Source of the DNA: Geosiphon pyriformis uo1
Lineage: Eukaryota > Fungi > Glomeromycota
Length of the DNA stretch: 64,000 nt
Assembly: GCA_016748015.1 (NCBI GenBank)
Contig: JAAOMT010000448.1
Location: forward strand, 62,001-126,000
Direction: 5' to 3'
The position numbers and the translations under genes were made by a program. Positions 7,555 through 64,000 of this stretch are shown in pieces (position 1 is the stretch's first letter; the number at the start of each line of letters is the position of its first letter). Under the pieces are notes generated by a model that was given only the letters and a program-made list of their open reading frames with translations, did no database searches and was not told the DNA's origin.

Positions 7555-7566
7555 TTATTCTCTCTT

Positions 7567-9081: not shown

Positions 9082-9094
9082 TTATTTCTTCCTT

Positions 9095-9754
9095 TTAATA
9101 TTAAACACTATCAAAATTTTTGTCTTGAATTAATTCTAATACTTTTTTTTCAAGTATTGTTTGTTTGACTCTGTTCTTCACATCTTCTACTTGTGTATTG
9201 TTCATTCTTTTCCATTGGTTAATAGATATGGTTTTCATGTCAGAGTATAACAGTATTTCTGGATAATTCTGAAATATGTTGTACAGTCAATAAATTGTTC
9301 TTACATGTAGTGTTGAGTTTGTCTTTTTCCCAATAAATTCTTCAATTTGCTGTATTATGTTTTGGTTAAATACTCTCTTGAATTTGTCGATATACAACTC
9401 CTGAATATTCAATTTTCGACTTAACTGGTAATAACAGTATGATATTGGAAGTTGTTCTGTCCATTGCTTCCAATTTTTTTTTGTAAGTTTTTCTGTTAGT
9501 GCCATAATAGATATTTTTTCAAAAGTGTTCTTTATTTTTTCTATTATGTTATCTAACCAGTTTTTATCATTCTTTGGTAAACACTGATATGGTGTATTCT
9601 TTGTCTTTCTTTTGGTGTTTTAATAGCAAATTGTTTGGTTGTTAACAATAATTTCCATATCTAAAGATTGTTGACTTAAGACCTGGAATAATTGTTGGGC
9701 TATGGCATGAATATGATCTGGTATTTCCATTTTTCTTGGTTGCCTTTGTCACAT
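9095..9754 (-). pseudogene. Element B ORF3 (220 codons, single frame, a few nonsense codons), function unknown
   Basis: M*QRQPRKMEIPDHIHAIAQQLFQVL..MALTEKLTKKNWKQW..SYCYYQL..FDSV*Y*. Includes track ORF 9287-9505. Lies between integrase and the PPT. Confidence 0.8.
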
Positions 9755-9790
9755 ATATTGTGTCTTTATATACTCTTTTATTGTTTGATT

Positions 9791-11999: not shown

Positions 12000-12029
12000 C
12001 TTTTGTTATATTTTTGGGTTGAAATGTTT

Positions 12030-17220: not shown

Positions 17221-18041
17221 TGTTACTCATAGAAATATAGGAAATATATTAGCATAATTATTAGCCAATCAGAAGTAAGCATAGTAAATGTAGAATTTCA
17301 GGATTTCTTTCAGGAATCACAGGATTCCAGGAATTTCAGGATTTCCAACGAGAAATTCCAGGATTCCTGTCGTGAAGAATCGAGGAATTGAGGAATCTCA
17401 ATTATGTATATATAGCAGTAGTGTTAGAAACAGAAAAGACAGAATCGATACCACAGAATCCTTAGCCTAGAAACACAAATCATCAAATAAATAATTATTC
17501 CATATCTCAACCCACTCTCCACTATCAACACTTCATGTTAATAGTAATTAATACTTGACCACACTGGAACAATAGCTCTTGATCATGGCTATTGACAGGA
17601 TACTAATCTGCAAATTGCCTTGGCTTATTTCTTTTCTTTCTTTATTTTTCTTTTATTTCTTTTTTTTTATTTTGTTGTTGTATACTAATTGATTAAAAAA
17701 GATTAAGTGCTGAGTTATTGACATCAAAAATAGCCTGGTAAAAGACCCAGAAATAAGGGTAGAATTATATATTATCAGATAGCTTACCAGAAAAGCACGA
17801 CTGCCAGACTAAATCCAGCCACCATGCTGAGAAAAAAATTGGGAAAACTCTTGGAAAAATACATATATTATTGACACTATTGAATTTCTGTCTATTATAC
17901 AAAGGACTCAACCAAAACCTTCAAATCCATCAAAACTTTCAGATACAACACCTTCAGATCACTATCAACTGCTATTAGCTTCGAGCACCAAGTTACGGGT
18001 TTGTTATTTAAATTCAATAGCAGAAATAATCACCTCTAACA
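17221..18041 (+). repeat. 5' LTR of element C
   Basis: TGTTAC..TAACA. GGAATTCC-like U3 repeats 17290-17400, TATA-like TATATATA at ~17407. Confidence 0.97.
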
Positions 18042-18043
18042 TT

Positions 18044-18060
18044 TGGTGCTTCCTGTAAGG
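18044..18060 (+). promoter_or_regulatory. Primer binding site of element C (TGGTGCTTCCTGTAAGG)
   Basis: TGG-initiated 17-mer 2 nt after the LTR end, complementary to a tRNA 3' end of the form ..CCUCACAGGGAGCACCA. Confidence 0.85.
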
Positions 18061-21000
18061 TATAATCCTACAGAGAACCAGCACCGACAACACCAAACCA
18101 AAAGTGGCAGAATCAAAAAATATAGGAGCAAACCATTTAGGATTCGCAAAATACTTATTTCAACACTATTGTCAATACTTGGGATTAAACCACAATCATA
18201 TATCCACCGAATCAGTCTTCAATTTCTACATCAATGAAAAGATTTCTTCTTTATTAGGAACACCAGTGAATACTGAATCAGCAAGGGAAACTTTTTATAA
18301 AGAATTAATTCAAAACACCAACCTATCAACAAACCATAATTTTGCATCTATTATCACTAAGATCAACAAAGAAATTGAACATCACACCCAACAAAGATAT
18401 CCAATTACATACGCTAGTAAAGGCAAGGGAAAATTACAAACACCAGCAGTAACACCCAGAAAAATACAGCCACTTGCTTGGAAGAAAAACAAAGTTGAAT
18501 CCCCAAGCAACCCATCCTACCACTATACACCTGGAAGCGCCATCAACATATCATCAACAGACGCATTCACATCAACTGTGACATCAGCATTTGGATGATT
18601 CCTATTCCAAAGTAGACAAAGGAAAACAGAATTGTTAGAACCATATGGCGAATACTTTGAGAGATTTAATTCACAATCATCAACCCCATCAGGACTTTAA
18701 TCACCACCGCCTCCACCAGATTTTGGAATTTCTGATCCGTGGGAAGAAGCAGAATCAGAAAAGGAGGAAGAAGAATCAGAGGATCAAGAATTCACTTACC
18801 AGCACCCAAACACTGAAAACTTGAAAGTTGAAACCCTGAACATTCAAACTCAGCAACAGTTAAAAAATCCGGAAATCGAAACCCTGAATATTCGAACACC
18901 ACCAAATCAAAGAAATCAAAACCCCGAATTAATTCATCAGCAAAACTTACTTCCGGTAATTGTCATCAATCAACTGCTGATTAATTCCATAGCCGAACCC
19001 ATACAGCAGCCACTTTAGCTACCACCCCAACAACCAGGACAACAACAACTGCTTCAACAGCCACCACAACCACCTAACTTAGATCCAATGGCCTATGCAC
19101 CAATTGCAAAACTCGACAACTTTACTGGTGAAGAGGATGACGCTCAAATATGGCTGAACAATGTAGAAAAAGCCATCGCAGCCAATGGATGGAATGACGC
19201 TCGAGCAATGTAAGCCATTCCTTACTTTCTCAAGGATACTGCCAATTCATGGTATCAGAGCCTGGTTAATAAACCACAAGATTTCAATGTCTTCAAAGTG
19301 GAATTTCTAAGATACTTCAGCAACAATAATAACATCAATCACCTAGTTAATGTATTCACCACCATAAAACAAGGAGAAACTGAAGCAGTCACTACTTATC
19401 TGGAATGCTTCCATCGAAATCTATGCCAAATTCAAGCAATTGACACCAATTATTTCACAGCACCACAGATACTCAATCAGTTTATCCATGGCTTGCACAA
19501 CAGCATCTTGCAACATGTACGGCCATTGCATCCAGGTATCCTTCAAGACGCAGTTACACATGCCAGAGATTTTGAATCTGCTGAGTCAGAGGCTAACCAC
19601 GCCCAAGCTGTTAATCTAGTAATGAATGGGTTATCTGAATTGGATTCCAAATTGAAGAAGTTCAGTGAATCAATCAATAAGAGATTGGAAGAATACTTAG
19701 CTGACAATCACACCATTTATCAGTCTCCACAATGACGCAATAATCAAGGAAACTTTAATCGTGCCCAAAATCAATTATGCCCATCTTTATCAACCAATCA
19801 ACAGTGGCAACAAGAAACGTGTATCTGTCACTATTGTGGTAAACAAGGACATATCCAAATTGACTGTTGCCAGCATCTAAATAACCAATGATTGGGAAAT
19901 CAATATTGAAACTCTGATCACCAGTTCCAAACTCCGAATCATTATCCAAGTCAGAATCAAGACCAATATCGAAATAATTACCTGCTCATGATGCAGCAAC
20001 CAATCTATCACCCACCAGTATATCAACCTCCGATTCATCAGCCACAGCCACAAGTAATATATCAACCACAGCCACAAATTATCTATCAACCCCAACCAAT
20101 TCAAACACCAACCCAGAATCCAGCTCAAATGACATCAGGCAACCCTCGATCCAGAGTCACTCAAAACTGGAAATCGGTGATGATTGTTCACCAACTGATC
20201 CCCAGTTCACTAAACTCACCATCAGGATTATGCACCCAGAATTTGGATATCAGTCGCGTTCAAAACCCAAATTCTCAACACTATTTAAGTCTCCTAGTTA
20301 CTCCAGAAAATGTCACATCCAACAACACAGAATTCAATCAGTATGTACCTACCAACACCATTCTACCGGCAACCATCTCTAGTGACGAATCCCTAGCCAC
20401 CATCTTTCCTTTCAAACTCGAAGAAAACACCCCAATACTGTTGTTCAGTGGAGCTGCCCTCAAAGAGAAACCCATAACAGCAATGTATACGGATGCCAAA
20501 GTTAATGGTCACTTCATCAAACTCATCCTAGATAGTGGATCAGCTGGCAGCATAATCACTAGACAACTTATGGATCAATTAGGTTGCCGAGTTGATCAAG
20601 CTGCCAGTGCCAGAATCATCACAGCCAATGGAGTGACCAAAACTCTAATCAGCGAAATTGACGATTTCCCTTTTGAAGTCAATGGCATCGTGACTCCCAT
20701 TAAAGTTCTAGTAATGGAAGCCATTCAATACCAAGCTCTTATTGGTAATAACTGGCTATCCAAAGCCAATGCAACATTAGACTGGAACACCCAGGAACTC
20801 CAGCTAATGTATTAGAGCCAACACATATGTGTTCTGGCCACATATGACCACTTCAAAACTCCTCCAAGAGAGAAACTATTAATCGAGCTGGAGGAGAAGA
20901 AAAAAAAGCCTACCTGGGAAGCCTACCAAGTATTGTGGGCTGACGAAGAGCACAACGAGCTGCCGCTAATACTCTTCTGGGACAACAACAACAAAGAAAA

Positions 21001-22069
21001 AGGAAAACAAAAGGAAGAACTTATCAGGGAAACCGATGACCTGACATGGACCGACAATGATGAGAGCGAACTGACTTCAAGTTGGGAATGAGAAGAAGAC
21101 AAAAAAAATAAAGAGAAGGGAAAAAAAAAAGAGACCACTCAAACCACCACCGCTTATAACACCTACACTACACCACAACGATCTACTTATCATCGACCCA
21201 AGCTTATATGCGTCAATTGTGGTAAGAAATTGTTGTCAATGGGTGCATGCTGTAGGGATAATGAGGAATATTCAACAGCAACTAGGTTCTATTGCCGCCC
21301 ATGTATCCTTGAATGCTTTAGAAAACCAAAACAAGTAGGGAAATGGGACAATCAGTCATGCTTAGCTTGTGGAGAAACTCTCTTGGATGAAGGAATGTGG
21401 CATGACATTCCTGAATGTGGAGAAACATGCGACATATCATGTCAATACATGATTCTAATAAGTGACTGGGTAAGGAAAAAAACCCCAATAGAAGCAGCCT
21501 GGAGAAGAGCTGTACAGCAACTGAACAGTTACCCACATGATGATGACAAAATTTGGCAAATGGCACTTGCAAAAATTGAAGAGGCGATGCCAGAAGAGAT
21601 AAAAACGATCAAAGACAACCCCCCAGAACCTTTAAAGCTTGACTGGGATGCAGAACCCATCATAAACCTTCTGGACCTGGAACAATTTCACGAACACTAT
21701 CAAGAATTAGCACCCACAAGGGAGGAACAAGAACAACAGTTAGAGCAGTTGAACACTCAACTATGTCAATACTGTCTAATTTCCTGTGACTTCTAGTATT
21801 GCGACGAGTGTGACTTCATTTACAATCCACCACCATGCATGATCTACACGATCCCGAAAGAGGAAAAACCAATCAGCAGCTGCACATTAGAATCAGAATC
21901 ACCAATTAATCGCAATTTAAACTCCAACAATGACGATGACAATAACGGTTCCAGCTCCATTCAAAATGGCAATAACAATGACAATGATTCCAACTCAGAT
22001 ACAAACTCCGATTTAAACTATGAACAATACATTGTACTACCAGATCTCTCCAAGAAACAAGAGTTGAAA

Positions 22070-22495
22070 TGGTATAGTGACAATGGGGAAGGTATTATGC
22101 CAGAACGTGTGCATGATACTGATGCAAGGTTTGATCTGAGATATCCAGGAAAAGATGCCATCAAATTGGAACCACATTCACGCACCTGCCTTGATCTGAA
22201 AATAGCACTAGAAATTCCGGCAACAACCATAGTTCAATTAGCATCTAAGAGTAGTTTAGCAAAAAGAGAAATCAATATAAGAGGAGGAATAATTAACATG
22301 AGATATGTAGGAAATATCATCACCATGCTACAAAATGACTTAGAAAAGGCCTATGTAATAGAACCCAATGAAAAAATAGCACAGGCAATATTCCTGCCTC
22401 TGGTTAGAATAGCTCAGTTAGTGTCAGTAGAAAAGAGAAAAGAATTAGGAATAACAGCAAGAGGAATACAGGGATTCAGATCCACAGGTAGAATA
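22070..22495 (+). pseudogene. dUTPase domain of element C
   Basis: PERVHDTDARFDL, LASKSSLA, GGIINMRYVGNI, EKIAQAIF, RGIQGFRSTG. All five trimeric dUTPase motifs are recognisable. Confidence 0.93.
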
Positions 22496-24381
22496 GATGT
22501 ACCAGTTAACATGGCAGAGGAAGAAATTGTTGGCCAAGGAGAAATTATCTCAACGGGTCAAGCTATTTTCATTCCACCATATAGCCAGTACATGTTAGCA
22601 ATAGAAAGGAAGGAAAAGAAGCAAGAACAGATGTTTGAAGCAGAAACAACCCTTTGTGAATCAAGAGAGATTGATCAATCTCCACATACTAGCCAAAAGC
22701 TATAGCAGCATAAAAATTCCCATCTACAACAATACTGGCAATGTCATCAGCATACCAGAAGGAACCACCATTGGATATTTAACCACAGAAATAGAAAACC
22801 AACCACCAAACCCCATTCCAGACTTTCCACAACTTTGTGGATATGTTGACATCACATCACAAACAATCTATGGACGAGACAAATGTTATTTGCTCCAACC
22901 AGAACAATTAGAACAAATGAACATGGGAAACTTAGATCCACTCCAATATATGCAGCTCAAGATGTTACTCAACAATTTCAATGACATCTTTGCCAGTGAA
23001 AATGAGTTTGGCCGAACTAACATCATCTAGCATCAGATCAAGACTGGAGATGCAATGCCAATCAAACAAAGAGCATACAGAGTGCTGCCAGCCAGCCATA
23101 AGATTATTTGTCAAAAGATAAACAGAATGCTTGACAATGGGCTAATTCAACCATCAATGAGTCCATGGTCATCACCAGTAGTACTCGTCCATAAGAAAAA
23201 TGGAAAAATCCAGTTTTGTGTAGACTACAGGAAACTCAATAGTGTAACTCATGGAGACAGTTATTCAACTCCACAAATACAAGAATTATTCGATGCTTTC
23301 GGTGGAAACAAATGGTTCTCTACATTAGATTTAGACAATGATTATTGGCAAGTAGCCATAAATCCAGCTGACAAAGAGAAGACGGCATTTACTACTAGAG
23401 AAGGGAATTTCGAATTTGAAGTAATGCCATTTGGCTTAACCAATGTTCCAGTGACTTTTTAATGGCTAATGGAAATTGTTTATACAGGTTTATTGTGGAA
23501 ATCAGTAGTTGTATACTTGGACAACACCAATGTATTCTCAAAGACGTTTGATGATTATCTGCATTATCTTCAACAAGTGTTCGAAAGACTAAGAAGAGCA
23601 GGACTGAAGCTAAATGCGACAAAGTGCTTCTTTGGCAAGACAGAACTCAAATTCTTGGGACACATAGTCAGCAAAGACAGCATCAAAACGGATCCAGAGA
23701 AAATAGAGATAGTAAAGAACTTTCTAGTACCAACCAATATAACAGAACTGAAATCATTCTTGGGATTTGCCAGCTACTATCGTCGTTTTATCAAGAACTT
23801 TTCCAAGATAGTGCAGCCACTCAATCAACTACAAAACAAAAATGCAAAATATGAATGAACAGAAAGTCAATAAAAAGCTTTTGATATTCTGAGGAAAAAG
23901 CTCATCCAAGCTTCAGTGCTGATCTATCCAGATTACAGCAAACCATTCATCATCACCACTGATGCATCCGGCCAAGCATTAGGAGCAGTATTATTTCAGA
24001 GAGAACCGGATGGAAGAGAACATCCAGTAGCATATGCCAGCAGAGGTTTAACACCAGCTGAAAAGAACTATAGAACACTGAAACAAGAACACTTAGCAAT
24101 ATACTGGGCTGTCATGAAATAGAAAAAATACTTGAGCCAGAAGTTTGAAGTATACACAGATCACAAGGGATTGACATCACTCCAAAAACAAGAATTTGGA
24201 GATAGAAGACAATCAAGATGGAAAATGTGACTCACACCATACAATTATACTATACATTACAAAAAGGGAAAAGACAATGAAAATGCTGATGGTTTATCAT
24301 GAATAAGACAAATTTAAGAACATTTCAACCCCAAAAATATAACAAAACCAGAACAATATCAACAAAAAAATATAACAAAAG

Positions 24382-25761
24382 ATGAACATACAAAAATATT
24401 AACAACTGCAACATTATATAAACACTCACCAGTTCAAGGAAAATTTATCTCAAATGGAATGAAAGAGTATCAAACAACAATCAAAATATTTTATCACTCA
24501 CTAAAATATATTTTATCGGAAAAATAAAAAAGATCCAGATCAACCAACCAGAGTAGTTATGGAACCAGAAAAAGAGACAATATTGTTCAACATGCACTTA
24601 AATTCAACAGCAGGACATTTTCACAAAGAAGCAACCATGGAAAAAACTAGAAAAAGATACTATTGGTCATTAATGTACCCAGACATCATTCAATATGTTC
24701 AAAATTGTGATGCTTGTCAGTGAAGAGGAGGAACAAAACCCAGTGAACCACTAAGACCAATCAAAATGGAACAACCATTTGACCGTATGAGAATTGATTT
24801 AGTCAGACCATTAACAATCACCAGCAAAGGAAACAAATACATAGCAGTAGCTATAGACTATCTCACTAAATGGCCAGAGGCGAAAGCAATTCAAAGAATG
24901 GATGCAGAATCTGTTGCCAAATTCGTTCATTAGAATATGATTTGTCGACATGGATGTCCAAAAGAATTATTATCAGATCAAGGAACTCATTTTGTGAACA
25001 GAACATTAACAGAATTAAGCCAAAGATTCGGAATCAAGAGACTATTATCATCATTATACCATCCACAAACCAACGGATTAGTAGAAAGATTCAACAGAAC
25101 ATTGTGTGAAGCAATAGCCAAACTCAGCCAAGAAAACCAGAACAATTGGGATTTGTTCATACCATCAATACTATTTGTTTATCGGACAATGAAACAAGAT
25201 ATTACACAAGCAACACCATTTGAATTAGTATATGGGAGAATAACAATGTTACCAGTCGAAAGAGAAATTAATACATATCCAGCTGAACCAATAATAGAGG
25301 AAAATTTTCAAGAAACATTGCTGAAAAGAACATATAACTTAATGGAAACATTGGAAAACAAATGAAGAGCAGCTGATAATATCCAAAAGTCACAAGAAAC
25401 ACAGAAAGAAAGACATGATAGTCAACTACCAGACAAACCAGTTGAATTCAAGATTGGAGACAAAGTATTACTACATCATACCAAAGCGGAGAAACAATGG
25501 AGCAGAAAATTTGACCCCAAATGAGATAGACCATTTCACATAGAAGAAATTCTAGAAAATGGAGCTTACAAATTAAGATTGGATAACAAAATTTTAACCA
25601 AAGCAGCACATGGAGATTGACTGAAACCATATCACAACATCACACTACCATCAACCAGTAATATTCTACAATTAGGAGTACAGAGAATACTAGTCCAACC
25701 AGATGAGATTCCACGAGATCTAGAACCAATTATTATTATCAACAACAACACATTAAATTGA
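24382..25761 (+). pseudogene. Element C integrase (460 codons, own ATG, nonsense codons)
   Basis: MNIQKY*QLQHY..H..GHF..CDAC..DYLTKWPEA..SDQGTHF..NGLVERFNRTL..RPF..LEPIIII, all in one frame. Confidence 0.92.
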
Positions 25762-25785
25762 TCCACCAAAAGAATATATAAAGAC

Positions 25786-26445
25786 ATGGTAGACACGACA
25801 GGAAATATCAGAAAAATAGAAATTACAGACAACATTCACTCACTAACACAACAACTCTTTCAATTAATCCAACACCAGGAAATGAAGATTACAATCAATC
25901 AACAAACCATTCAATATCAAGATACTAGAAAAACATTTTAACTCAGAACACAGAAGAAAACTGAAAATACCATGGACAAAATCATGGTGAAAGTAAAATT
26001 AGCAATAAAAAAATCGATAAAAGAGTTACTATATCAAGAGTTAACTAAAAAAACTTGGAATTGGTGAATACAACAATTCCCATGAAACTATTGTTATTTT
26101 TACTTGGGACAACATGTAAATATTCAGAATCTATATACGGATAAAACAAAGCAATTATTTAACAAAAGAATACTACAACAATTAGAACATTTTGTGGGAA
26201 AGAACAACTTATCCACACAAGCCTGAACAATATACCAAATATACACAGCATTTCAAGATAAACCAGAAATATTACACAACAGAGCAATGGATATGGTTAC
26301 AAGTAATCAACTGGAGAAAATCACCAATGCTCAATTTGAAGAATTACAGACCCAAATAACACAAGTAATTCTTGAAAATGAAATCCAGGAAATACTTCAA
26401 GAAGGGAAATTACATGAGTTAGATTTTGACAAAGCTCAATATTAA
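25786..26445 (+). pseudogene. Element C ORF3 (219 aa, four nonsense codons, no frameshift), function unknown
   Basis: ATG 25786 to TAA 26445 in one frame: MVDTTGNIRKIEITDNIHSLTQQLFQLI..NYCYFYLGQHVNIQ..TIYQIYTAF..FDKAQY. Each internal stop is one C>T or G>A change from a sense codon. Confidence 0.82.
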
Positions 26446-26459
26446 AAAGGAGAGAATAA

Positions 26460-27280
26460 TATTACTCATAGAAATATAGAAAATATATTAGCATAATTAT
26501 TAGCCAATTAGAAGTAAGCATAATAAATGTGGAATTCTAAGATTCCTCTCAGGAATCGCAGGATTCCAGAAATTTCAGGATTTCCAACGAGAAATTCCAG
26601 GATTCCTGTCGTGAAGAATTGAGGAATTGAGGAATCTCAATTATGTATATATAGCAGTAGTATTAGAAACAGAAAAGACAGAATTGATACCACAAAATTC
26701 TTAGCCTAAAAACACAAATCATCAAATAAATAATTATTCCATATCTCAACCCACTCTCCACTATCAACACTTTATGTTGATAGTAATTGATACTTGACCA
26801 CACTGGAACAATAGCTCTTGATCACAGCTATTGACAGGATACTAATCTGCAAATTGCCTTGGCTTATTTCTTTTCTTTCTTTATTTTTCTTTTATTTCTT
26901 TTATTTTATTTTGTTGTTGTATACTAATTGATTAAAAAAGATTAAGCACTGAGTTATTGACGTCAAGAATAGCCTGGTAAAAGACCCAGAAATAAGGGTA
27001 GAATTATATATTATCGGATAGCTTACCAGAAGGGCATGACTGCCAGACTAAATCCGGCCACCATGCTGAGAAAAAAATTGGAAAAACTCTTGAAAAGATA
27101 CATCTATTATTGACACTATTGAATTTCTGTCTATTATACAAAGGACTCAACCAAAACCTTTAGACCCATCAAAACCTTCAGATACAACATCTTCAGATCA
27201 CTATCAACTGCTATTAGCTTTAAGCACCAAGTTACAGGTTTGTTATTTAAATTCAACAGCAGAAATAATCACCTGTAACA
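26460..27280 (+). repeat. 3' LTR of element C
   Basis: Direct repeat of 17221-18041, preceded by the PPT AAAAAGGAGAGAATAA. Confidence 0.97.
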
Positions 27281-27284
27281 GCGA

Positions 27285-28362
27285 TCAGTTGCTGTTGTTG
27301 TATTGGTGGTTGAAGTGATTGTTGCAGTTGCTAAACCAGTTGCTAAATAAGTTGCTGTTGAAGGGGTATTTGCTGCTATTGAATCAGTTCAATAATTGGT
27401 TCAATTGGTAGCTGATTAATGACAATATTCGAAGATAAGTGTGGTTGATTAATTACTTCAGGGTTTAAATTGTTTTAGTTTGGTGGCAGTTGAATCTGTA
27501 GAGTTTCAATTTCGGGGTTTTCCAAATTTGGATTTCTCAGAGTTTGAATGTTCAGTGTTTTAAATCCTGGGTTTTCTGGGATCAGATTTTGATAAGTAAA
27601 TTCTTGATTCTCAAATTCTTCCTCTTTTTTGTCTTCTTGTTCTTCTTCCAATTTGGTGATTTCCTAAGGACTCACAATTCCAAAATCTGGTTGTGGTGGC
27701 GGGGATCAAAATCCTGATAATATTGGCAATTAAAATTTAAATCTTTCAAAGTATTCGCCATATGGTCCTAATAAATTCTCTTTCTTTTGTTTACTTTGAA
27801 ATGGAAATTTTCCAAATGCTGATGTCATAGTTGCTGTGGATGTGCCTGTTAATGTAATATTAATGGCACTTCTGAGTATATAGTGATATGATAGTTTGAT
27901 TGGTGATTCAACCTTTGTTTTCTTCCAAGTAGGTGGTTGTATTTTTTGGGATGTTACTGCTGGTGTTTGTAATTTTCTTTTACCTTTACTTATGTAAGTA
28001 ATTGGGTATCTTTACTGTGTGTGATATTCGATTTTTTTGTTGATTTTAGTGATGATGGATGTGAAATTATGATTTGTTAGTAGGCTGGTGTTTTGAATTA
28101 ATTTGTTGTAAAAAGTTTCCCTTGCTGATTCAATATTTACTGATGTACCCAACAAATATGCAATTCTCTCATTGATGTAGAAATTGAAGACTGATTCTGC
28201 TGATATGTAATTATGATTCAACCCTAAATGTTGGCAATAATGTTGGAATAAGAATTTCGCAAATCCTAAATGGTTTTCTCCTATGCTTTCTAATTCTGCC
28301 ACTTTTGGATGAGATTGTTGGTGTTGGTTCTCTGTAGGATTATATCTCACAGGGAGCACCAA
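27285..28362 (-). pseudogene. Element B Gag N-terminal region
   Basis: ORF 28012-28362 (VLPVRYNPTENQH..NHLGFAK) is homologous to 18043-18598. It continues to the element C insertion point. Confidence 0.88.
28345..28361 (-). promoter_or_regulatory. Primer binding site of element B (TGGTGCTCCCTGTGAGA)
   Basis: Starts with TGG 2 nt after the 5' LTR. The same motif follows the 5' LTR of A, C, D and the LTR at 41769. Confidence 0.85.
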
Positions 28363-28363
28363 A

Positions 28364-29191
28364 TATTACAGATGATTATTTGAGGTCTCAAATCAAATAA
28401 CAAATCCGTAACTTGGTGCTCAATATCTTAACAATGCTGGTGATACTGGCATATTGGTTGTATCTGAAGGTTTTAGAGTTGAGTCTTTTATATAATAGAC
28501 AGAGATTCAGTGGTAATAGTTTTATCCATAGCTTCTCAAAACCGCAGTTTTATCAATTTTTTTTTCAGCTTGATGGCCAGTATTCCTCCTAATAAGCTAT
28601 CTTCAATCGAGTGTCCTACTCTTATTTCTGGGTCTTTTACTAGTGCTATCTCCTGATGTCAGTACCCCACATGTTAATTCTCAATAAAGTTAGTAATAAC
28701 AATAATTAAGACAAAAAAATAAAAGAAATGACATAAAGAAATAAGCCAAGGCAATATGCAAGTTAATATCTGTTAATAGCCATAATCAAGAGCTATTGTT
28801 CCAGTGTGGTTAAGTATCAATTGCTATCAACATGGAGTGTTGATAGTGAAGAATAGATTGAGATAGTGAATAATTATTTATTGATATTTGTAATATAGAA
28901 GGTTTCTACTGATGGATTCTGTTTTTTCTACTTCTAATACTACCACTATATATACATAATTAATGTTCTATGAGATTGCTCATATTTCCGAGTGATGTGC
29001 TATGATTTCTTGAGCAATGCTCACATTGCTGAGTGATGTGCTCTAATTTTCTAATATTGCTCCACATTACTGAACAATGTGCCATGATTTCTGACATTGC
29101 TTCATATTGCCAAGTAATGTGCTCATATGTTAAATACTATTCTCTTATTGGTCTGCTATTTTCTCTATCTGTTTTCTTTTTATGAGTAACA
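28364..29191 (-). repeat. 5' LTR of element B (828 bp)
   Basis: Direct repeat of 8228-9081, adjacent to the PBS. Confidence 0.95.
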
Positions 29192-29239
29192 ATACATTGA
29201 TTTTTTATATATACTGTTCTTATAGATTAATTTAATGTA

Positions 29240-32200
29240 TTTGTGTTAATAATTATGATTAATTCTAGATCTTATGAAATTTTATCTGATTGAACTAGTA
29301 TTTATTGTACTTTTAATTATGAAATATTACTGGTAAATAATAATGCTATATTGTAATATAATTTTAATTGATCTCTATGTGCTATTTTAATTAAAATTTT
29401 GTTGTTTCATCTTAATTTATAAGCTTTATTTTCTAGAATTTCTTCAATATGAAATGGTTTGTCTTATTTGGAGTCAAATTTTCTATTTTATTGTTTTTCT
29501 GCTTTGATACAATATAAAAATACTTTGTCTCTAATCCTGAATTCAATTGGTTTATCTGGTAATTGGTTATTATGTTGTTTTTTTTGTTTTGCTTGTAACT
29601 TTTGTATATTATTAGCTGCTTTTTGCCTTTTGTTTTCTAGAGTTTTTATTAAATCATATGTTTTTTTCAACAATGTTTTTTGAAAGTTGGCTTCTATTAT
29701 TAATTTCATTAAATATGTATTAATATCTATCTTAACTGATAATATTGCTGTTTTATTATAAACAAGTTCAAATAATATTGCTTGTGTAATATCTTGCTTT
29801 ATTATTTAATAAGAAAATAATATTAATAGTATAAACAAATCTCATTCATTTTGGTTTTTTATTAATTTTAGTTATAATATTCTATTGAATTTTTTAATTA
29901 AGCCATTTGTTTATGAATGATATAGTAATAATAATAGTCTCTTAATTTTAAATCTTTAACTTAATTCTGTTAATATTCTGTTCACAAAATGAGTTTTTTG
30001 ATCTAATAATAATTTTTTTGAACATTTATGTTAATAAATCAATTTTTGATGGATGAATTGAGCTATAAATTTTGCATCTGCTTTTTAAATTGCTTTTGTT
30101 TCTGGCTATTTTGTAAAATAATTCATAACTATTGCTATATATTAATTATTTCTGCTGGTTATAATTAATGATTTAACTAAGTTAATTCCAATTTGATTAA
30201 ATAGTTGTTCTACTTTAATTGGTCTTAGTGGTTTACTGGGTTTTGTTTCTTTTCTTTTCTGACAAACATTATAATTTTAAATATATTGAATAATATCTAG
30301 ATACATAGATAATTAATAGTATTTTTTTCTGGTCTTTTTTATGATTGCTTCTTTATAAAAATGTCTTGTTATTAAATTTAAATACATGTTAAACAGTATT
30401 GTTTCTTTTTTTGGTTCTGTGATTACTCTGAGTAATTGATCTGAATCTTTTTTGTTTTTTTGATATAATATATTTTAATAAGTAATAAAGTATTTTAATT
30501 GTTGTTTTATGTTGTTTTGTTTTTTTTGAGATAATTTTTGCTTAAACTATTAAGTATTGATATAGTTTTGGAATTATTGGTATTTTTGTGTGTTTATTTT
30601 TTGTTATATTTTTGGGTTGAAATGTTTTTAGATTTGGCTTATTTACAATAAACTGTTAGCATTTCTATTTTTTTTTCTCTTTTTATAATATATAATATAA
30701 TTAAATAGTAATAGTTCTATTTTCTATTTTGTATAGTAATTATCTCCAAATTTTTGCTTTTGGATTGATGTCAATCCCTTGTGATCAGTGTATATATTAA
30801 ACCTTTGACTCAAGTATTTTTTTCATTTAATAACAGTTTAATAAATAGTTAAGTGTTTTAATGCTGAAATTTCATAGTTCTTTTTAGCTGAACTTAAATT
30901 TTGACTGGCATATGTTACTAGATGTTTTTGTCTATTTGTTTCTTTTTGTAATAATATAGTTTCTAATGCTTGACTGAATATATCTGTGATAATAATAAAT
31001 AACTTGTTGTGATTTAAATAAATCAATACTGAGACTTAGATAAGCTTTTTTCTCAAGATATTAAAAGCTTTTTGTTAGATTTTAGTCCATTCATATTTAA
31101 CATTTTTTTCTTAAAACTAGTGAAGTGGTTAAGCCAGTTTAGAGAAATTTTGGATAAAACAGTAATAGTATTTAACAAATCCCAAGAATGCTCTTAATTT
31201 TATTAAGTTTTTTAATACTAAAAAGTTCTTAACTATTTCAATCTTGTCTGAATCTGTTTTTATGCTATCTTTGCTTATAACATGTCTTAAAAACTTGAAT
31301 TTGGTTTTGCCAAAAATACTTAATGGTATTTAATTTTAGCCCTGTTTATTTTAATTTTTTAAACATTTGTTAAAGATAATAAAGATAATTATTGAATGTT
31401 TTTAAAAACATATTGATGTCATTTAAATAAACTACTATTAATTTCCATAGTAATCCAGTATAAATAATTTCCATGAGCTGTTAGCAAGTAGCTGAAATAT
31501 TGATTAAGCCAAATGACATAACATCAAATTCAAATTTTTTTTTTTGATAATGAATGCTGTTTTTTTTTTGTTAACTGAATTCATAACTACTTGTTAGTAA
31601 TCACTATCTAAGTGCAATACTAAAAACTATTTTTTTCTCTGAAAGCATCAAATAATTTCTGGATTCATAAAGTTGGATAACTGTTTTCACAAGTAATACT
31701 GTTAAGTTTTTTGTAATTTACACAAAAGCAGATTTTTCTATTTTTTTTTGGATAAATACTACTAATAATAACTATGAATTCATTGATGATTGAATTAATT
31801 CATTGTCTAACATTTTGTTTATTTTTTGTTAAATTATCTCATGACTGGCTGGTAGTACTTTATATGTTTTTTGTTTAATTGATATCACATTTTTAGTTTT
31901 AATCTGGTGTTGAATAATATTAGTTTTGCCAAATTTGTTTTTATTGGCAAAGATATTAGTAAAGTTGTTGAGTAGCATTTTAAGTTGTATTTGTTAAGAT
32001 GGGTTTAGATTTTTTAAGTTTATTTGTTTCAATTGTTCTGGTTGTAACAAATAACATTTTTTTTGTTTATATATAGTTTGTAATATAATATTCCAATATC
32101 TACACAATTGTAAAAAATATGAAATAGTAGTTGGTAATTGGTTCTTAATTTCAGTGCTTAAGTATTTGATAGTAGTTTTACTTGGTATTTTTATGAGATT

Positions 32201-35200
32201 TTTAATTGTGTTGTATATTGAAATCTTGATGTATTTGTAGTTTTTGGCTGGTATGTAAAGATTAATGATGCCAATTTTTTCTGATTCACAAATGTTTGTT
32301 TTAGTTTTAAAGATCTGAAGTTGATCTTTCACTTTCTTTTTTATAATTAATATATACTGGTCATATGGTGAAATAAAAATTGATAATAAGTAGAAATAAT
32401 TTTTCTTTTATTAATTGTTTTCTCTTTTGTTATATTAACTAATATTTCTAATTTACTTGTAAATTCGAATCTTTTTATCTTTTTAGCTGTAATCTCAACA
32501 CTAACTAAGCTATTTTAACCAGAAGTAAGAATATTGTTCATGCTATTTTTTTGTTTGGTTTAATAGTATATCCTTTTTTTGAATTATTTTGTAACATTGC
32601 AATAATATTTTATATATATTTTGTATTAATTATTCTTTTTTTAATATTGATTCTTTTTTTTACTAAACTAAATCTCAATACTAATTGGATCATTATTGTT
32701 GCCAGAATTTTCAGTATTAATTTTAAATTTATGCTGGTACACAAATAAAGTTACAATCTGATGACAGTTTTTCCTAAATACTTAAGATCAAATTTTGTAT
32801 TAATATTATGTGTATGTTTTAACAGGATATTTTTACCATTATTGCTGAATTATTTAAGTTCCTGTTCTATTAAAAAATCTAGAAGTATAATATATTATTT
32901 GGAAGTTTTTATTAAAGTTTGAATTATTGTTGTTATTGTTGCCATAGTAAATAGAGTTAGAACTGTTGTTGTTGTCATTATCAAAATCGAAATTATAATT
33001 AAATTTCAACTCTAATTTTGATGCATATTTGTTGATTGGTTTTTTTCTTCAGAAATCAAATAAATTATGTACAGTAATAAATTGTGAATAAGATTACAAT
33101 TGTCACAATATTTAAAGTTACTGAAAATTAGACAATGTTTACAAAATCTTATGTTTAATTGTTCCAAATACTGTTTTTGCTTTTTTTTAGTTGGTGCTAA
33201 ATTTTGGTAGTATTCATAGAATTGTTTTGATCACTCAAAATATCAATAAATGCATCTGAATTAAAAATAAAAATAGTCTTAACAGATTCTAGTAAGTTGG
33301 TTTTAATAGTGAGTATTTTACTAAATAAAACACTTTTGACTTTAGCACTTATTATTTACCAGATTTCATTTTCATTATGTAAATAGCCATTCAAATATGA
33401 AAGTACTCAATTCTATGTGACATTGAAAGACATTTCTTAACTTACTTAGTTGTTTATAAGAATCAGATATTGACATAAAGTGTCATATATTTCTTCTTGA
33501 CCAAAAATATTGTTTTACATTTTTTTATTGAGTAATTTTTTCTTACAAGTAAACATGGTTTGTTGTTCCACTTTTCTTGTCATTTTGAATATCTGAAATA
33601 TTTTTAGTGGTATGGTTTGCAGTAGTAGTAAGTACATGTCTAGTAGTTTTTTTTAGGTAAAATTCAAGCTTCCATAAAAAAAAGCTTTTTATTACAGTCA
33701 ATATATCAAAATAGAATATATGTGGTTGTTTTTTTGTGTTAACAAAGTAGAATTTATTCTATTCACTGGTTATTTTTTTGGTATTTATAATGGCTTCTGG
33801 TTTGTTTTTTTCTTTTTTTTTATCATTTCAAGAGAATATTGGTAATAATTTATTGTACTCATTTTCAGTCCATGAAATTTAATAGACTTTTTAAATAGAT
33901 TTTTTTTTCTTTCTCCAACTTAATTAATAGTTGCTTTTTTAAAGAAGCTTTAAAGTATTCACAGATGGCAAGTACTTAAGTATATTAATTATCAAATGTT
34001 AATTGAAGCTTCTAAGTATTCTAGTTAAGTATAGTATTGGTCTTAGACAACTAATCATTATCAACAAAAGCTTGGTACTGCATAATTTCTATTATCAACA
34101 TTTTGATTAGAGTAACAATACCATTAACATTGAAAAAAAATCATTAATTTCACTAATTAAAGTCTTTATTACTTTATTAGCAGTAATAATTTTGGTGTTA
34201 ACAGCATGATCAAATCAATAACTTAATTGGTTTATGAGTTGTCATGTAATAATGCTGTTTGCTAAACTGTTATCAAGAATTAGCTTGATAGATTGGCCAT
34301 TAATTTTGGCATCTGTGTATATTGTGGTAATTAATTTAATGTTAAAAGTGACTTTACTAAATAAAGATAGTATTGTCAATTCTTTTACTTCAAAAAGAAA
34401 TATGGCTGTGAGTGACTCATCTTTAATAACAGTTGCTAAAGAAATGTTGTTAGTAAGTGGTATTTATAAGTCTTTCAAGTTGTTAGATAAGTTAATTTCT
34501 GGAGTAATCAAAAGACTTGAATAGTTTCGGGTTTTGGGTGTATTCATTTCTCAAATTCTACTGGTATAATTTAAATGACTGGTTTAATAAACTGGAAATT
34601 GGTTGGTGTATTACCATTACCAATCTTCAATTCTGCTAAATGTGAATGATTTTCAGTTTTGAATTTCTGATTAGTATTAATACAATTATTTAGAGTAATG
34701 CTTAAATTTGCTGGAATTGATAAATAACTTATAACTGTGACTAATATATTATTAGTGCTGAAGTTTAATATACTGGAGATAAATATATTGATTATTGTAT
34801 TATTGAGGTGTAATAAGACTAATATTAATATTGTTCTTAATTTAAGATATAATTTGAAGTTTGAAACCAATAATTGAGATTTTAATATTAATTTCCTAAT
34901 TATTGGTTATTAAATCTAGAGTGGTAATCTGCTTTTAAATGACTTTGTTTACTATAATAATAGCAATTATATATTTTCTGTTGTCACAGTTGATTTAATA
35001 ATAATAAACATGATTAATTTTAGAAACAAATAAAGTTTTTTTAATTGTCACAACATTGTAAAGACTAATAAATATCTTGATTGTTAGCTTAATATTCCTT
35101 GATTTTCTGATTGATGGCTTTACCAAATTGTTTCAATTTGGTATTCAATTTAGATAATTTGTTCATTACTAGATTTATAGTTTAAGCATAATTGGCTTTA

Positions 35201-36620
35201 AGTTCAGTTAATTCAAAATTTCTGGTGTATATAACTGTGTCTTAAAAAGTATTTGGGTGTATTGAACATATTCATTGTAACAAGTTGCTGCACAATCTGC
35301 AAATAAACTGGTTCAAAATCTGTGCTGCTGTAAAGTAATCAGCTTGAATTATCTGAATTTGGTACAGATTCCTATAGAAATATTCTAAATAAGTAGTAAT
35401 TGCTTTAGTATTATTTTGTTTAATTGTGATAAAATTAGTTAATAACTAGTTGATACTGTTGTAATTACTGAAATATTGTAGAAATGCAGTTTTGAACAGA
35501 TCAAAATCTTAAGATTTGTTTACAAAATTTTGATACTATAAGTTAGTAATATCTTGAAGAAAGTATAGAATAGCTTGAATTGCTCTAATATTATTTTATC
35601 TATTGGCTGCAATGGTTTTTTTCATATTATTTAGCTATACTTAAACAGTATTTTTTTTGCTGGTAAACTTTTCTAGTTTGACAATGAATGTATATATTAT
35701 TAATGCAAATTGTTATGATTGTGGCTGTTATTAAAATTGTGATTATGATATGGCAATAGATATAACTAGTAAATTGATTATAATAATTGAAAGTAAATAT
35801 TGCTAAAGAATAAAAATGGAATTTGGATTGTTCTGGTTTTTTAGAGTTTGAACAATCAGAGTTATGATTTCTGAATTAATTAGAATTAGGTTTTAATTAT
35901 TATTTCTCTGATTACTGTCTTTTTTTTCAATTTGGTATATTTTTAATAACTGGTAGATCCAAAATTTGATTAAAGTGGTAGTAATTAAAGTTTTAATGAT
36001 GTTGTTAGTCATAATTTAAATTCTTTAAAAAAATTGCTATAGATTTCTAATAATTTGACTTTTTCCTAATTATTTTAGAATAAAATTTGAAATAATGGTG
36101 TTTTTGTAATTAATAATAATATAAATTCTAATAGCATATATATAGTACTTTCTAATATATAATAATATGATAGATAAATAAGTAAAATAACTCTTGGTTT
36201 CTTCTAAGTAGATAATTGTATTTTCTTTAGTATTTTTACTGATGTTTGTAATTTTCTCTTGTCTGTAAAGATAATAAAAAATTTCTGCTGGATGTACTTC
36301 TCAATTTTTCTGTTTATTTCTGTAATTAGTAGTATAAACAAATAGTTTAATAAAAGTATAGTGTTTTAGAATAATTTACTGTAGAAATTGTTAAAGATAG
36401 CTTCTGGATTTTTTTGTCTCCTAAGTAAAATTTAATTTTTTTATTGACATAAAAATTGAAAGCTAATTCTGTTGACCAATAATTACTTGTTAGTTCAAGG
36501 TAAATTTGGTAATATTAAAATAAAAATTTCACAAATCTTAAATGATTTTCTCTTATGATTTTTTAGTTTGCTACTTTTCTGAATAGTTGATATTGGTATT
36601 GGTTTTTTGTTAAATTATAT
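29240..36620 (-). pseudogene. Element A gag-PR-dUTPase-RT-RNaseH and integrase, heavily mutated
   Basis: ORF remnants 29488-29709 (IN), 30838-31026 (RNase H) and 31994-32332 (post-dUTPase) are colinear with elements B and C. Confidence 0.85.
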
Positions 36621-36638
36621 CTTACAGAAAGCACTAAA

Positions 36639-37461
36639 TGTTATAGATAATTATTTGAAGTGTTAATACAAATAATAAACCTGTAACTTGGTGCTCAATA
36701 ACTAGTAGTGTTGATAATTTTTAAAGATTTTAAAGTTTAAAAGTTTTGGTTGAGTTCTTTGTATAATAGATAGAGATTCAATTGATAGTTTTTTTAATGA
36801 ATTTTTTTTTTCAGCATAGTGGTCAGTTTATTTTAACAGTTATGCTTTTCTGGTAAGCTATTCTTAAATTTTTACTCTTATTCCCAAATTTTTTACCAAG
36901 TTATTCTTAACATCAAATACTTAATGCTTAATTTTTTTAATTAATTAGTAAACAACAAAAATAAAAATAAAAATAAAATAAAAATAAAATAAAATAAAAA
37001 AAATTAGTATCTTGTCAATAGTTATAATCAAGAATTATTAGTTCAATATGATTAAGTGTTGATAGCATAAAAGTATTTAATATTTTTAATTAAACAATAA
37101 TAACATAAATTGAATGATAATTAAATATTTTTATTAATATAAATGTGTTTCCATTTCAAGTTATAGAAAACTATCTTTTAAAAAGAGTGTATTAAGATTC
37201 TGAACTCTATTAAATTCTAAATACTTTTTTTGTTTTTAATATTCTTACTATATATACATAATTTGTGTTATATGAAATTTTTAGAAATTCTGCAATTTTT
37301 TGAAAAAAATTCTAAAATTTAAAATTTTGGAATTCTGCAATTTCCTGAGAAAAATTCTGGAATTTTGAAATTCTGGAATTCAGTAATTTCTTATTTTACT
37401 ATATTTATTTCTAATTGGCTATTTTATCTATTTTTATAATTCTTAATTTTTATAAGTAACA
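36639..37461 (-). repeat. 5' LTR of element A
   Basis: TGTTA..TAACA termini. Followed on the minus strand by TT plus decayed PBS TAGTGCTTTCTGTAAGA. Confidence 0.88.
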
Positions 37462-61445: not shown

Positions 61446-62424
61446 TATTACTGAAGGTTTTTGGTCTCTTTTTTTGAATGTTATTGATGCCTGTTTGCTG
61501 TGAATTCACGTTTTCTGGATGTGGTTGAACCTCCAGTAACTGAATTTCTCTTCAAATTATCTCCTATAATTTGAATTGCTGGGCTTATAAGTAAAATGGC
61601 CAATTCTGTACCAGTTACTTTATGTAGTTACATTGTAGTAAACGTCAACTTTTTTCCAGAATTTGCTCGTCTGAAAGCTCACTAAAAATGTGTAATTACT
61701 TTGCTGTGAAAGTCAACTCTTTTACAGAAATCTTGTCTGTAGGCTACCCTAATGATTATAGTAAGAAAAATAAAAAAAAAATAAAAAAAATGTAAAAAAA
61801 ATAGAATTCTGTCAAGGGAAATGTTTTTAATCCAGGCCTGAAGTCACTAACAGTTTATTAAAATTGGTAGCTAATCAATTTCAAAACGTTAGTTGGGTTT
61901 TGAGAATTTTTCAAGTGCAATAATTAAAGAATTTGGTTTTTCAAATTATTTAATATTTATTTTTTTTTGTGGGTGTAGGAATGGTTCTAAGTAATAAATC
62001 TAAAGTAAGATACATTTTTTCAAAGAAAAAAGCTCTTCTTTTATACAACTTGTTATAACACTATTTTATGAACTTGAACTTTGCTATTTTCTATAATTTT
62101 GCTGAACTAAAGATACATTTTGGCGAACTATAAGTTATTTCTGCAAACTATTAGATATTTTGGTGAACTATCAATTATTTTGGCAAATTTCTACAAATTT
62201 TGGCAAACTTTTGAATGTTACATAGTTCAGAGTATTGCATGATTGATCATCACAATTAGGTTATATTTGTGTTGTGTACAAATTGGATTATTAATTAAAT
62301 GATAATTTTGGACATTTTGCTAATGTAATAAGTAATAATTTGAAATGATAATATATGTTAATTAATGATAGGAATTATAAGATAATTTCATGCTAAATAA
62401 TATCTCTAATTTCGTCTGGTAACA
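61446..62424 (-). repeat. 3' LTR of element E (~979 bp)
   Basis: Begins TGTTACCAG on the minus strand right after the PPT. Homologous to solo LTR 49907-50876. TATAAAAG at ~62039-62046 (minus). Confidence 0.92.
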
Positions 62425-63112
62425 TAACCTCCTTCTTAAAACTGAGCTCTGCTGAAATCCAAGTACTGTCTGTAATTTCCAAATAGTAATCCAAAATTAT
62501 TGAAGAAATTTGGTCTGAAAATTGTTGAAATTTCAGTTCTGTGAACTTTTCAATGTATTGAATCTTCAAAAGTCGTAAAATTGGGTTTTGTAGGACATTT
62601 TTACAGGTGTAGAATAGGTCATAAAGTCTAAAAGCAGCTCTGAGCTTGTAGCAACTGTTTGTTGGTCCAGCTGTTGTCTTGAATTTGTTGTGGAGTTGTT
62701 TCTGAATAGCTTTTTTTGTGAGGTTTGCTGTTGTAAGTTCCAGTTTCCATTCATAGAGTGTTTTTCCAATGTGGAAATATTTATAGATTGGAGAATATTC
62801 AGTGTTTTCCTCATTGAGACACAGTTGAAGTCTTTGTTGAATTGTAGCATTTGGTGGAATATTAATTGGAGTAAACATTAGGTTTTCTCTTAAAGCAAGC
62901 TTTAAAAGTTCTGACAGGTGAATTCCAGAATAACTTCTTGTGTTCTTCTTATATGAGTGATATTTTTGTGAATTTAGGGCTAAATTTGTAACTACTTCTG
63001 TTTGGGTATAATTAATGTGGTTTTCAGTAACAGTAATAGATAATTCGGGTATTGTTTTTAAAGCTAACATTAGTTTTTGGAATAATTGTTGAATGTTTTG
63101 AGGAATAGTCAT
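62393..63112 (-). CDS. Element E ORF3, intact 239-aa protein of unknown function, runs through the PPT into the 3' LTR
   Basis: Uninterrupted ATG-initiated ORF in the same position as, and with a similar N-terminal and central residue pattern to, ORF3 of A, B and C. Confidence 0.8.
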   Translation of the reverse strand: MTIPQNIQQLFQKLMLALKTIPELSITVTENHINYTQTEVVTNLALNSQKYHSYKKNTRSYSGIHLSELLKLALRENLMFTPINIPPNATIQQRLQLCLNEENTEYSPIYKYFHIGKTLYEWKLELTTANLTKKAIQKQLHNKFKTTAGPTNSCYKLRAAFRLYDLFYTCKNVLQNPILRLLKIQYIEKFTELKFQQFSDQISSIILDYYLEITDSTWISAELSFKKEVMLPDEIRDII

Positions 63113-63223
63113 TATAAGAGATTTGAAATAAAAGAAAATTATTTTTGGTGTATGGGTTTTTATGTTATTTTTGTTTTGATTGTTTCTAAATTATAAAAAG
63201 ATAACTATAATAATAAATTTAAT

Positions 63224-63612
63224 TTAAGTGTTCAAGTTGGGAGATTGTTCAATGACAATTATTGGTTCTAAATTTCGGAGAATATCTTCAGGATTGATTA
63301 AAGGAAAATGTGTACCAATTTGTGGAATTAATGGTTCAGGATTGTTTCTGAAATTATAGTATTTCAAATGATCTCCATGTGCAACTTTTGCTAAGATTTT
63401 GTCATTAAGTCTTAGCTTGTATGATCCATTGCCTAGGACTTCATGGATAAAGAATGGTCCATCCCATTTACTTTCAAATTTTCCACTCCATTGTTTTTCA
63501 GCTTTAGTTCTGTGTAAGAGAACTTTGTTTCCGATTTTAAATTCATTGGTGACTGGAAGCAATTTGTCATCATGTCGTTCTTTTTGTCGAGCTTAAGAGT
63601 GTTCAATATGGG
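63224..63612 (-). pseudogene. Integrase C-terminal tail (GPY/F module) of element E
   Basis: QKERHDDKL..FKIGNKVLL..KFESKWDGPFFIHEVLGNGSYKL..LEPIIVI. Confidence 0.9.
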
Positions 63613-64000
63613 TGGCTGTGGGGCAGGCTGATAATAGTTACTTTGGTATTGGAGTCTTGGTGGATAGTAAGCTGGTAGTGGTGGTTGATAATGAGATTGC
63701 TGTGGTGGAAAGTAATATTGATTACTCTTATTTTGTTGGTCTTGTTGTAGCTTTCTGCAATCTCTTTTTCAGTGGTCAAAGATTCCACAGTAATGGCAAT
63801 TCTGAGGCTGGTTATTAGAAAGTGGTGCAAAGTTATTTTAATTTCGTCTTTGGGGTGGTTGATATCTTTGGGGTTGCTGTTGTTGTTAATTGGTGAAATA
63901 GTTTTCAACCTTCTTTGTGAGTTGGTCAATTTTTTCCTCAGCTGCTGAGCTGGTTTCTCCAATTGCCAAATTTACAAGTTTTGTGCGATTAGCCTCTTCT
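63613..64000 (-). pseudogene. Gag C-terminal region of element E with CCHC knuckle
   Basis: Minus strand ~63755-63805 reads QNCHYCGIFDH*KRDCRKLQ, followed by a Q/P/Y-rich tail. Confidence 0.85.

Follow-up and report, generated by a model that had tools for sequence, protein, structure and literature searches.

The window analysed here is a stretch of 64,000 nucleotides of Geosiphon pyriformis DNA, AT-rich and crowded with decayed LTR and LINE elements. Near its end lies element E, whose third open reading frame (ORF3) is intact between the integrase and the 3′ LTR, as an earlier note on this DNA had claimed (Table 1). Only the 3′ LTR of E falls inside the window, its landing site is a LINE-like element, and pol between gag and the integrase C-terminus is missing from this copy (junction near 63610); integrase core sequence is present in other E-type gene models (P0266). 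Two stops separate ORF3 from the integrase of E, and the integrase of another copy ends at the identical residue. ORF3 had been thought to end before the polypurine tract (PPT). Instead, its last codons hold the PPT together with the first 32 nt of the 3′ LTR, and the motif pattern of the peptide encoded across this junction was matched by 106 of 288 collected proteins, 63 of which are full-length, stand-alone E-type proteins.

Table 1. Element E, the nested elements and their ORF3 copies, in coordinates of the window.
Feature	Position	Strand	Basis
ORF3 of element E, intact, 239 aa (P0001)	62393..63112	-	ORF reading; 200 homologues at E<=0.001
Basic linker, residues 49-59, site of the family's PY-NLS-like motif	62936..62968	-	motif scan; pLDDT<50 in the matching stretch of P0259
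Conserved helical core, about residues 100-210	62483..62815	-	alignments; helices at pLDDT about 90 in homologue P0259
Polypurine tract (PPT) of E, within ORF3	62428..62437	-	sequence
3′ LTR of E, starting inside the last ORF3 codons; U3 short repeats with 10- and 20-bp periods	61446..62424	-	self-comparison, sequence
AT-rich spacer of 111 nt, integrase stop to ORF3 ATG; candidate internal promoter or leader	63113..63223	-	sequence
C-terminal part of the E integrase, with a weak Tf2-type SH3 match; pol upstream of it deleted	63224..63610	-	sequence, Pfam
gag 3′ part of E, fused to integrase C-terminus by internal deletion; element leaves the window	63611..64000	-	sequence
ORF3 of C, no frameshift but four internal stops; integrase frame, with an intervening stop at 25759	25786..26445	+	sequence
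ORF3 of B, frameshift-free, four internal stops	9092..9754	-	sequence
ORF3 remnant of A/D, one frameshift, many stops, severed from integrase by insertion of B	7571..8220	-	sequence comparison
Element A/D, outer element of the nest; LTRs 6743-7554 and 36639-37461, 81% identical	6743..37461	-	self-comparison
Element B, inside A/D; LTRs 8228-9081 and 28364-29191, 91% identical	8228..29191	-	self-comparison
U3 array of element B, about 40-bp repeats	8814-9000	-	sequence
Element C, inside B; LTRs 17221-18041 and 26460-27280, 94% identical	17221..27280	+	self-comparison

The other copies of ORF3 lie in a nest that was resolved by self-comparison and target-site duplications: C sits in B, B in A/D, and a solo LTR in the integrase of B. 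The 4-bp duplications are exact in one case (ACAA/ACAA) and carry one change in three others, and B is inserted at the ORF3 start of A/D (GTAT/GCAT). Five ORF3-bearing elements had been claimed; we found four. Since A and D form a single element cut by B, D has no ORF3 remnant of its own, and of the two remnants proposed earlier only the frameshifted one in A remains. The 220-codon frames of B and C proved frameshift-free as described, but each contains four internal stops and they are therefore not open. The elements that host ORF3 have the paired TG...CA LTRs (81–94% identical), PPT and target-site duplication of Ty3/Gypsy elements, with gag, protease, RT, RNase H and integrase in the corresponding order; the full order in C is gag, protease, dUTPase, RT, RNase H, integrase, ORF3. 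Pfam families found on segments of C, B and the contig L001, which encodes the relative P0259, were Retrotrans_gag, Ty3_capsid, gag-asp_proteas, dUTPase, RVT_1, RT_RNaseH, Integrase_H2C2 and rve. The dUTPase lies between protease and RT at 21797–22705 (+) and 13881–14504 (−), with a Pfam E of 2e-15 for C, and is preceded by about 250 codons with Cys-rich motifs.

Several further features were recorded in the window. The solo LTR in the integrase of B (10836–11663, +) is C-type and has the exact ACAA duplication. A primer-binding-site-like sequence, TTTGGTGCT(T/C)CCTGT, follows the 5′ LTRs of C, B and the decayed A/D (18042–18060, 28345–28363 and 36620–36638). An E-type LTR at 49919–50876 (+), 76% identical to the 3′ LTR of E and in opposite orientation, lies at the outer end of the 5′ LTR of element F, a more distant Gypsy element (LTRs 42424–42967 and 49354–49895). 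In an ORF3-like position, F contains a frameshift-free stretch of about 200 codons (43020–43640, −) whose end crosses the PPT and the LTR start and which includes a basic linker; its homology to ORF3 was not detectable (hhalign P 0.11; 75 of 300 shuffles scored as high). A LINE-like element occupies 57797–61445 (+), with decayed relatives near 4155–6728, 37445–38304 and 55516–56870, and these serve as landing sites of the Gypsy elements; ORF1-like, endonuclease- and RT-like frames were recognised in them by eye, and two scanned segments had no Pfam match. Finally, an open frame at 39780–40416 (+) contains three tandem 174-nt repeats (58-aa unit, 86–97% identical) in otherwise decayed DNA.

Relatives of ORF3 are annotated in their hundreds as Geosiphon pyriformis hypothetical proteins, which describes all named relatives of the E-type (119 listed of 200 matches, 61–89% identity) and 110 of 110 relatives of the C-type. 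The earlier note had seen a shared pattern across the elements and had considered that alignable homology between families might be absent. Here, E-type and C-type proteins were found to be homologous and to align (hhalign probability 91%, E 1e-6, 183 columns), and a joint E and C profile recovered exactly four copies in the window (E 1e-90 to 5e-7; next match 0.07). Searching 1.84 billion representative sequences with the E profile gave 35 matches, and the seven most distant, when looked up, comprised five Geosiphon proteins and two metagenomic clusters. The metagenomic proteins are intact (230–234 aa), 25–29% identical to P0001 and acidic overall (pI 5.4–5.9). Between distant lineages ORF3 is colinear over its full length at 18–36% identity, and a tree of 14 rows, in which long branches meet and the deep order is unsure, places E and the metagenomic proteins in one clade and B, C and A/D in another, which also takes in several further Geosiphon lineages. 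The top ESM Atlas match of P0259, a 98-member Mucoromycota cluster (score 0.94), may be a lead to a wider family, while a comparison of P0257 with viral contigs found no relative. In L001, a stop closes RT-RNase H, the integrase forms a separate ORF that begins at its own ATG, and beyond 316 nt of AT-rich spacer comes an intact ORF3, which is out of frame with the integrase and holds the PPT and LTR start inside its end. This layout, as read from the contig, argues most strongly for ORF3 as a gene in its own right. Judged by comparative sequence evidence, ORF3 is a real, selected third gene between the integrase and the 3′ LTR of dUTPase-bearing Ty3/Gypsy elements.

The strength and mode of selection were examined mainly in the window copies B and C. 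Their ORF3 proteins are 41% identical, above the one-third estimated previously by eye, against 73% for RT-RNase H and 79% for the integrase, so that the RTs are indeed far closer than ORF3. In a DNA-only alignment, ORF3 gave a pS of 0.69 and a pN of 0.33, a ratio of 0.48 (0.38–0.59), and not the dN/dS near 1 that the earlier note had weighed; differences by codon position were 0.40/0.27/0.50. The corresponding pN/pS of RT-RNase H and integrase was 0.21. Non-coding LTR controls gave 0.64–0.86, the lowest with an interval (0.49–0.85) overlapping that of ORF3, and because this control also falls below 1 the ORF3 ratio alone is modest evidence. A protein-guided alignment gave a corrected dN/dS of 0.20 with dS saturated, and E against L001 a pN/pS of 0.66, likewise saturated. 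All six ORF3 indels between B and C have lengths divisible by three; among the LTR indels, 3 of 19 do. Transversions, a measure that C>T decay does not inflate, amounted to 157 in 634 ORF3 sites versus 130 in 1879 pol sites, a rate about 3.6 times faster than pol. These comparisons support the view that ORF3 is under purifying selection while evolving fast.

The changes are also unevenly distributed. Private transversions of B, C and A/D numbered 89/46/22 in ORF3, 55/25/52 in the LTR and 32/55/43 in pol; relative to pol, in which B is no farther out than C or A/D, element B is an outlier in ORF3 (p 1e-7) and less cleanly in the LTR (p 1e-4), and the branch patterns of ORF3 and LTR also differ from each other (p 5e-6), all in a comparison of three elements only. 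The U3 repeat unit measures about 40 bp in B, whereas C, A/D and the solo LTR have units of about 8 bp. The pattern of B would fit either an exchange or a joint acceleration of the 3′ module, and because ORF3 and the LTR adjoin, template switching could move both together without any functional link. Within the E family, fixed differences between subfamilies concentrate in the N-terminal 100 columns (27, versus 12 in the next 110; p=0.004). When fixed and private changes in this family were compared by BLOSUM scores, conservative changes were not enriched (36% vs 43% positive), a test that is uninformative under C>T decay.

The proposal that ORF3 encodes a soluble, mostly helical, element-encoded accessory protein distinct from Env was supported by hydropathy and by an AlphaFold model. 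No hydrophobic segment was found in any of eight proteins (best 19-residue Kyte–Doolittle mean 0.27–1.29), in agreement with the claimed lack of a transmembrane stretch; for the equally claimed lack of a signal peptide, the judgement is one of hydropathy alone. On a shallow alignment the fold was poor (pLDDT 46.6), and a search of viral structures with that model returned nothing. With 46 sequences, P0259 was modelled at a mean pLDDT of 79, rising to about 90 over residues 80–200. The predicted layout comprises an N-terminal helix and beta-hairpin, a disordered linker (residues 40–52), the helical core, a long C-terminal helix and an acidic tail. Foldseek with the good model found nothing at E<=0.001 among PDB and viral structures, with residues 1–70 barely covered; a wide structural search of 48,161 chains yielded none at Z 5 (best Z 4.5, a designed protein); and profile searches of PDB sequences reached at best E 0.16–0.17. 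This lack of a significant structural match does not show that the fold is new. Pfam gave no significant match for ORF3 with 18 or 46 members scanned, the matches listed for the 46 being the best 25 of 38 families, and among these neither a chromodomain nor SH3_Tf2-1 matched ORF3, the SH3_Tf2-1 match falling in the integrase proper; the confident hit to an Env or integrase C-terminal domain that the earlier note had weighed was likewise not obtained. Two sets of apparent matches were set aside. phrog_23683, matched by 18 of 46 members (best E 3.8e-4), was judged a chance helical match (hhalign probability 2.6%), having been examined through its best phage tblastn match, a small Bacillus prophage protein that may belong to that family; ESM Atlas matches to a closterovirus coat protein and a translation repressor lay below the recognition threshold. 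ORF3 thus far represents a protein family without description in the literature covered, for which a fold is predicted with confidence and no solved structure matches significantly.

The linker points to the cellular compartment in which the protein may act. It is basic in 7 of 8 lineages tested (the exception being P0263), and a R/K/H-x(2-5)-PY motif occurs within it in six: the E family, P0257, P0259, P0260, B and P0262. Chance occurrence on shuffled sequences was 1.4–3.4% per lineage, and the six lineages are not independent because they are kin. Among 105 E-type proteins 58 match the motif and 53 read YHPY; the window copy of E reads YHSY and has lost it, and the C subfamily has a K/R-rich stretch instead of a PY motif. 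R/K/H-x(2-5)-PY is the consensus given for PY-type nuclear localisation signals, and the signal of yeast Hrp1 ends in YHPY like that of the E family (PMC2408616). ORF3 is predicted to enter the nucleus through a signal of this type.

A likeness of ORF3 to DUF1016_N, DUF3102 and ParB, which we had presumed before any comparison, was followed at several levels. Over the core, VIA-align placed the ParB-type DNA-binding domains of Spo0J (1vz0; Z 3.9, rmsd 5.0, 93 aligned), KorB (1r71; Z 3.3, rmsd 4.5, 93 aligned) and ParB (6s6h; Z 3.2, rmsd 3.2, 59 aligned), yet these Z scores of 3.2–3.9 are tied with those of unrelated helical chains and lie within the noise. DUF1016_N was the Pfam family touched by most members, although weakly (5 of 46, best E 0.015). 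None of the profile alignments was significant, whether with 27 ParB sequences (hhalign P 0.44–0.56; 4 of 31 extracted rows had been dropped as mis-extracted or partial), with the N-termini of YhcG (P 0.04 with 11 sequences, 0.22 with 83) or with two DUF3102 proteins. The core profile scored above zero on 59 of 83 YhcG N-termini against 22 of 83 reversed ones, and on 9 of 27 ParB sequences against 9 of 27 reversed. No solved relative of YhcG turned up when one was sought. Between ORF3 and the ParB/KorB domain or DUF1016_N, the YhcG N-terminus, the order and register of the core helices look similar (a YF.IG helix, a G-K-T-N turn and an A.RLY helix); what sets ORF3 apart is that both are prokaryotic families, that it lacks the nuclease/CTPase domain of ParB and the PDDEXK domain, and that no comparison was significant. 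A ParB/DUF1016-like fold of the modelled core is a lead only. Independently of ORF3, Pfam HTH_ParB matched weakly (E 1e-4 to 9e-4) inside the plasmid YhcG/DUF1016 genes L097 and L100, and YhcG and ParB alignments matched each other at P 9e-4, hinting that DUF1016_N may be related to ParB.

Our leading interpretation, to which we assign a probability of roughly 0.35, is that ORF3 is a nuclear DNA-binding activator of the LTR of its own element. This interpretation draws on the stand-alone, selected gene, the nuclear-signal motif, the ParB-like lead and the shift of both ORF3 and LTR in B; against it count the noise level of that lead, the missing motif in the C subfamily and the E copy of the window, and the acidic character of the metagenomic proteins. 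The protein would be translated from a subgenomic RNA whose 5′ end lies within or close to the AT-rich spacer, or through reinitiation, and as a soluble protein would enter the nucleus through its predicted PY-type signal. There the helical core might bind nucleic acid, with the family-specific U3 repeat arrays of its own LTR as the likely target, and so promote transcription of the element, a self-activation that would operate in a host that methylates transposons.

The best placed of the alternatives, though in our estimate unlikely, is a nuclear RNA-binding factor that, like Rev or CERV of C. elegans, would export or stabilise full-length RNA and balance it against subgenomic RNAs. The predicted nuclear signal is of the type used by yeast mRNA-binding proteins, and the elements appear polycistronic. 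In the usual Gypsy layout there is a single pol. Here, RNase H and integrase are separated by a TAA stop whose location is identical in C (near 24315), B (near 12005), A/D (near 30600) and L001 (772–799); in L001 and C the integrase begins at an ATG of its own, a codon that reads ATA in B. The integrase looks to be a separate ORF in these elements, and the stop-plus-ATG layout suggests a lineage with a general way to express internal genes; because the elements appear polycistronic, several RNAs or reinitiation would be needed. E and L001 also have in common a CTTTTATTTC motif directly upstream of the ORF3 ATG. A precedent is the LTR retrotransposon that encodes CERV (PMC10309623). Against such a factor, the vicinity of the ORF3 ATG lacks a conserved splice acceptor, the nearest candidate AG being at −73 in E, −261 in L001 and −62 in C, and no RNA-binding family was matched among the Pfam matches listed.

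Ranking behind this, and improbable, is an anti-silencing factor that would work like VANC proteins or viral RNAi suppressors and counter methylation of the element's DNA or its silencing by small RNAs. The rapid evolution of ORF3 under selection is what a conflict with the host could produce, although a sequence-specific binder explains it equally well. CpG is depleted in these elements to 0.0–0.3 of expectation, and a related fungus methylates transposons and makes small RNAs from them (10.1101/2021.03.30.436303). No known suppressor, demethylase or chromatin reader was matched by the structural search or among the Pfam and PHROG matches listed.

Third among the alternatives, and improbable as well, is a partner of the integrase serving pre-integration complex targeting or nuclear import, fused or read through in the B/C/A-D clade and split in the E clade. 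In B, C and A/D, ORF3 shares the reading frame of the integrase, from which it is separated by one or two stops. One codon at the junction is TGA in C, TAA in A/D and CAA in B; since all three could have arisen by decay of CGA, an integrase–ORF3 fusion is conceivable in that clade. Pfam showed no chromodomain at the integrase end, and three elements of the clade are nested in one another. This partnership is countered by a stop in B two codons before the junction codon, by the ATG that ORF3 has of its own, by the out-of-frame arrangement behind the long spacer of L001, and by the lack of any read-through of the junction in 232 proteins of 121–419 aa, long fusions lying outside that range.

The remaining two readings are, taken together, very improbable. 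That ORF3 is a piece of a captured host gene, or a frame that arose by chance and does nothing for the element, would suit a window in which most copies are dead, but hardly a position and frame that are kept across such divergent lineages and independent metagenomes with frame-preserving indels. An Env-like membrane protein, the least credible of all, is favoured by position only and is at odds with the hydropathy of all eight proteins, the predicted soluble helical fold and envelope families that did not rise above noise among the Pfam matches listed. What probability remains belongs to roles beyond those considered here. Extending the activator interpretation, one may picture a "complex" fungal retrotransposon that is polycistronic, has a separate integrase and carries its own sequence-specific transactivator on a ParB/DUF1016-like bacterial DNA-binding fold, co-evolving with the U3 repeat arrays of each family and exchanged together with the LTR as a single regulatory cassette; as a whole we regard this picture as improbable.

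LTR elements make up 41% of the G. pyriformis genome (PMC11952901), and of its annotated "hypothetical proteins" hundreds belong to the ORF3 family alone and deserve relabelling as transposon genes. Should ORF3 prove to activate its own element or to counter its silencing, the expansion of one Gypsy lineage in a methylating host would be explained. Our search found no description of ORF3 in the literature, in which subscription journals, probably including the Geosiphon genome papers, were thinly covered.

The position of ORF3 has parallels in several known systems. The earlier statement that limits fungal Ty3/Gypsy elements to gag and pol goes too far, as a figure legend in PMC2864245 already notes additional ORFs of unknown function; as far as legend and text describe it, that fungal Gypsy "add. 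ORF" resembles ORF3 in class. Extra ORFs of LTR retrotransposons, sense and antisense, are a known class (PMC11963269). Within it, the aORFs of plant Retand/Grande elements (TRP28; PMC11963269) and the ORF3 types of bdelloid rotifers (PMC5408684) likewise represent an extra Gypsy gene between pol and the 3′ LTR that is kept across families. As described in these sources, DNA binding has been proposed for TRP28 and the Grande protein is nuclear (PMC11963269), and the rotifer lineages have a dUTPase too (PMC5408684), whereas the TRP28 ORFs are antisense (PMC11963269) and Geosiphon ORF3 is sense. Among the Pfam matches listed, ORF3 had none to esterase, exonuclease, envelope or TRP28 families. 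CERV of C. elegans Cer1 is, by the account in PMC10309623, an accessory nuclear protein of a Gypsy-type LTR retrotransposon, and nuclear entry is predicted for ORF3 as well; CERV is made from a spliced mRNA and exports genomic RNA, whereas ORF3 has no demonstrated splice form or similarity to it. The model for our preferred reading of ORF3 as an LTR activator is Tas (Bel1) of foamy viruses, which binds the LTR and an internal promoter (PMC4929722). Tas is a small soluble protein encoded beside the 3′ LTR, and ORF3 even overlaps the LTR. No foamy-virus family appeared in the Pfam matches of 18 and 46 members (the best 25 of 38 families for the 46), and the systems differ in that ORF3 resides in a fungus, in an element without env, with LTR binding and an internal promoter only proposed for it. 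If the activator reading is true, ORF3 would provide a fungal counterpart to the accessory genes of complex retroviruses together with a testable protein–DNA pair. What is known, in sum, is the kind of position for an extra ORF; the protein family that fills it is, in the literature covered, undescribed.
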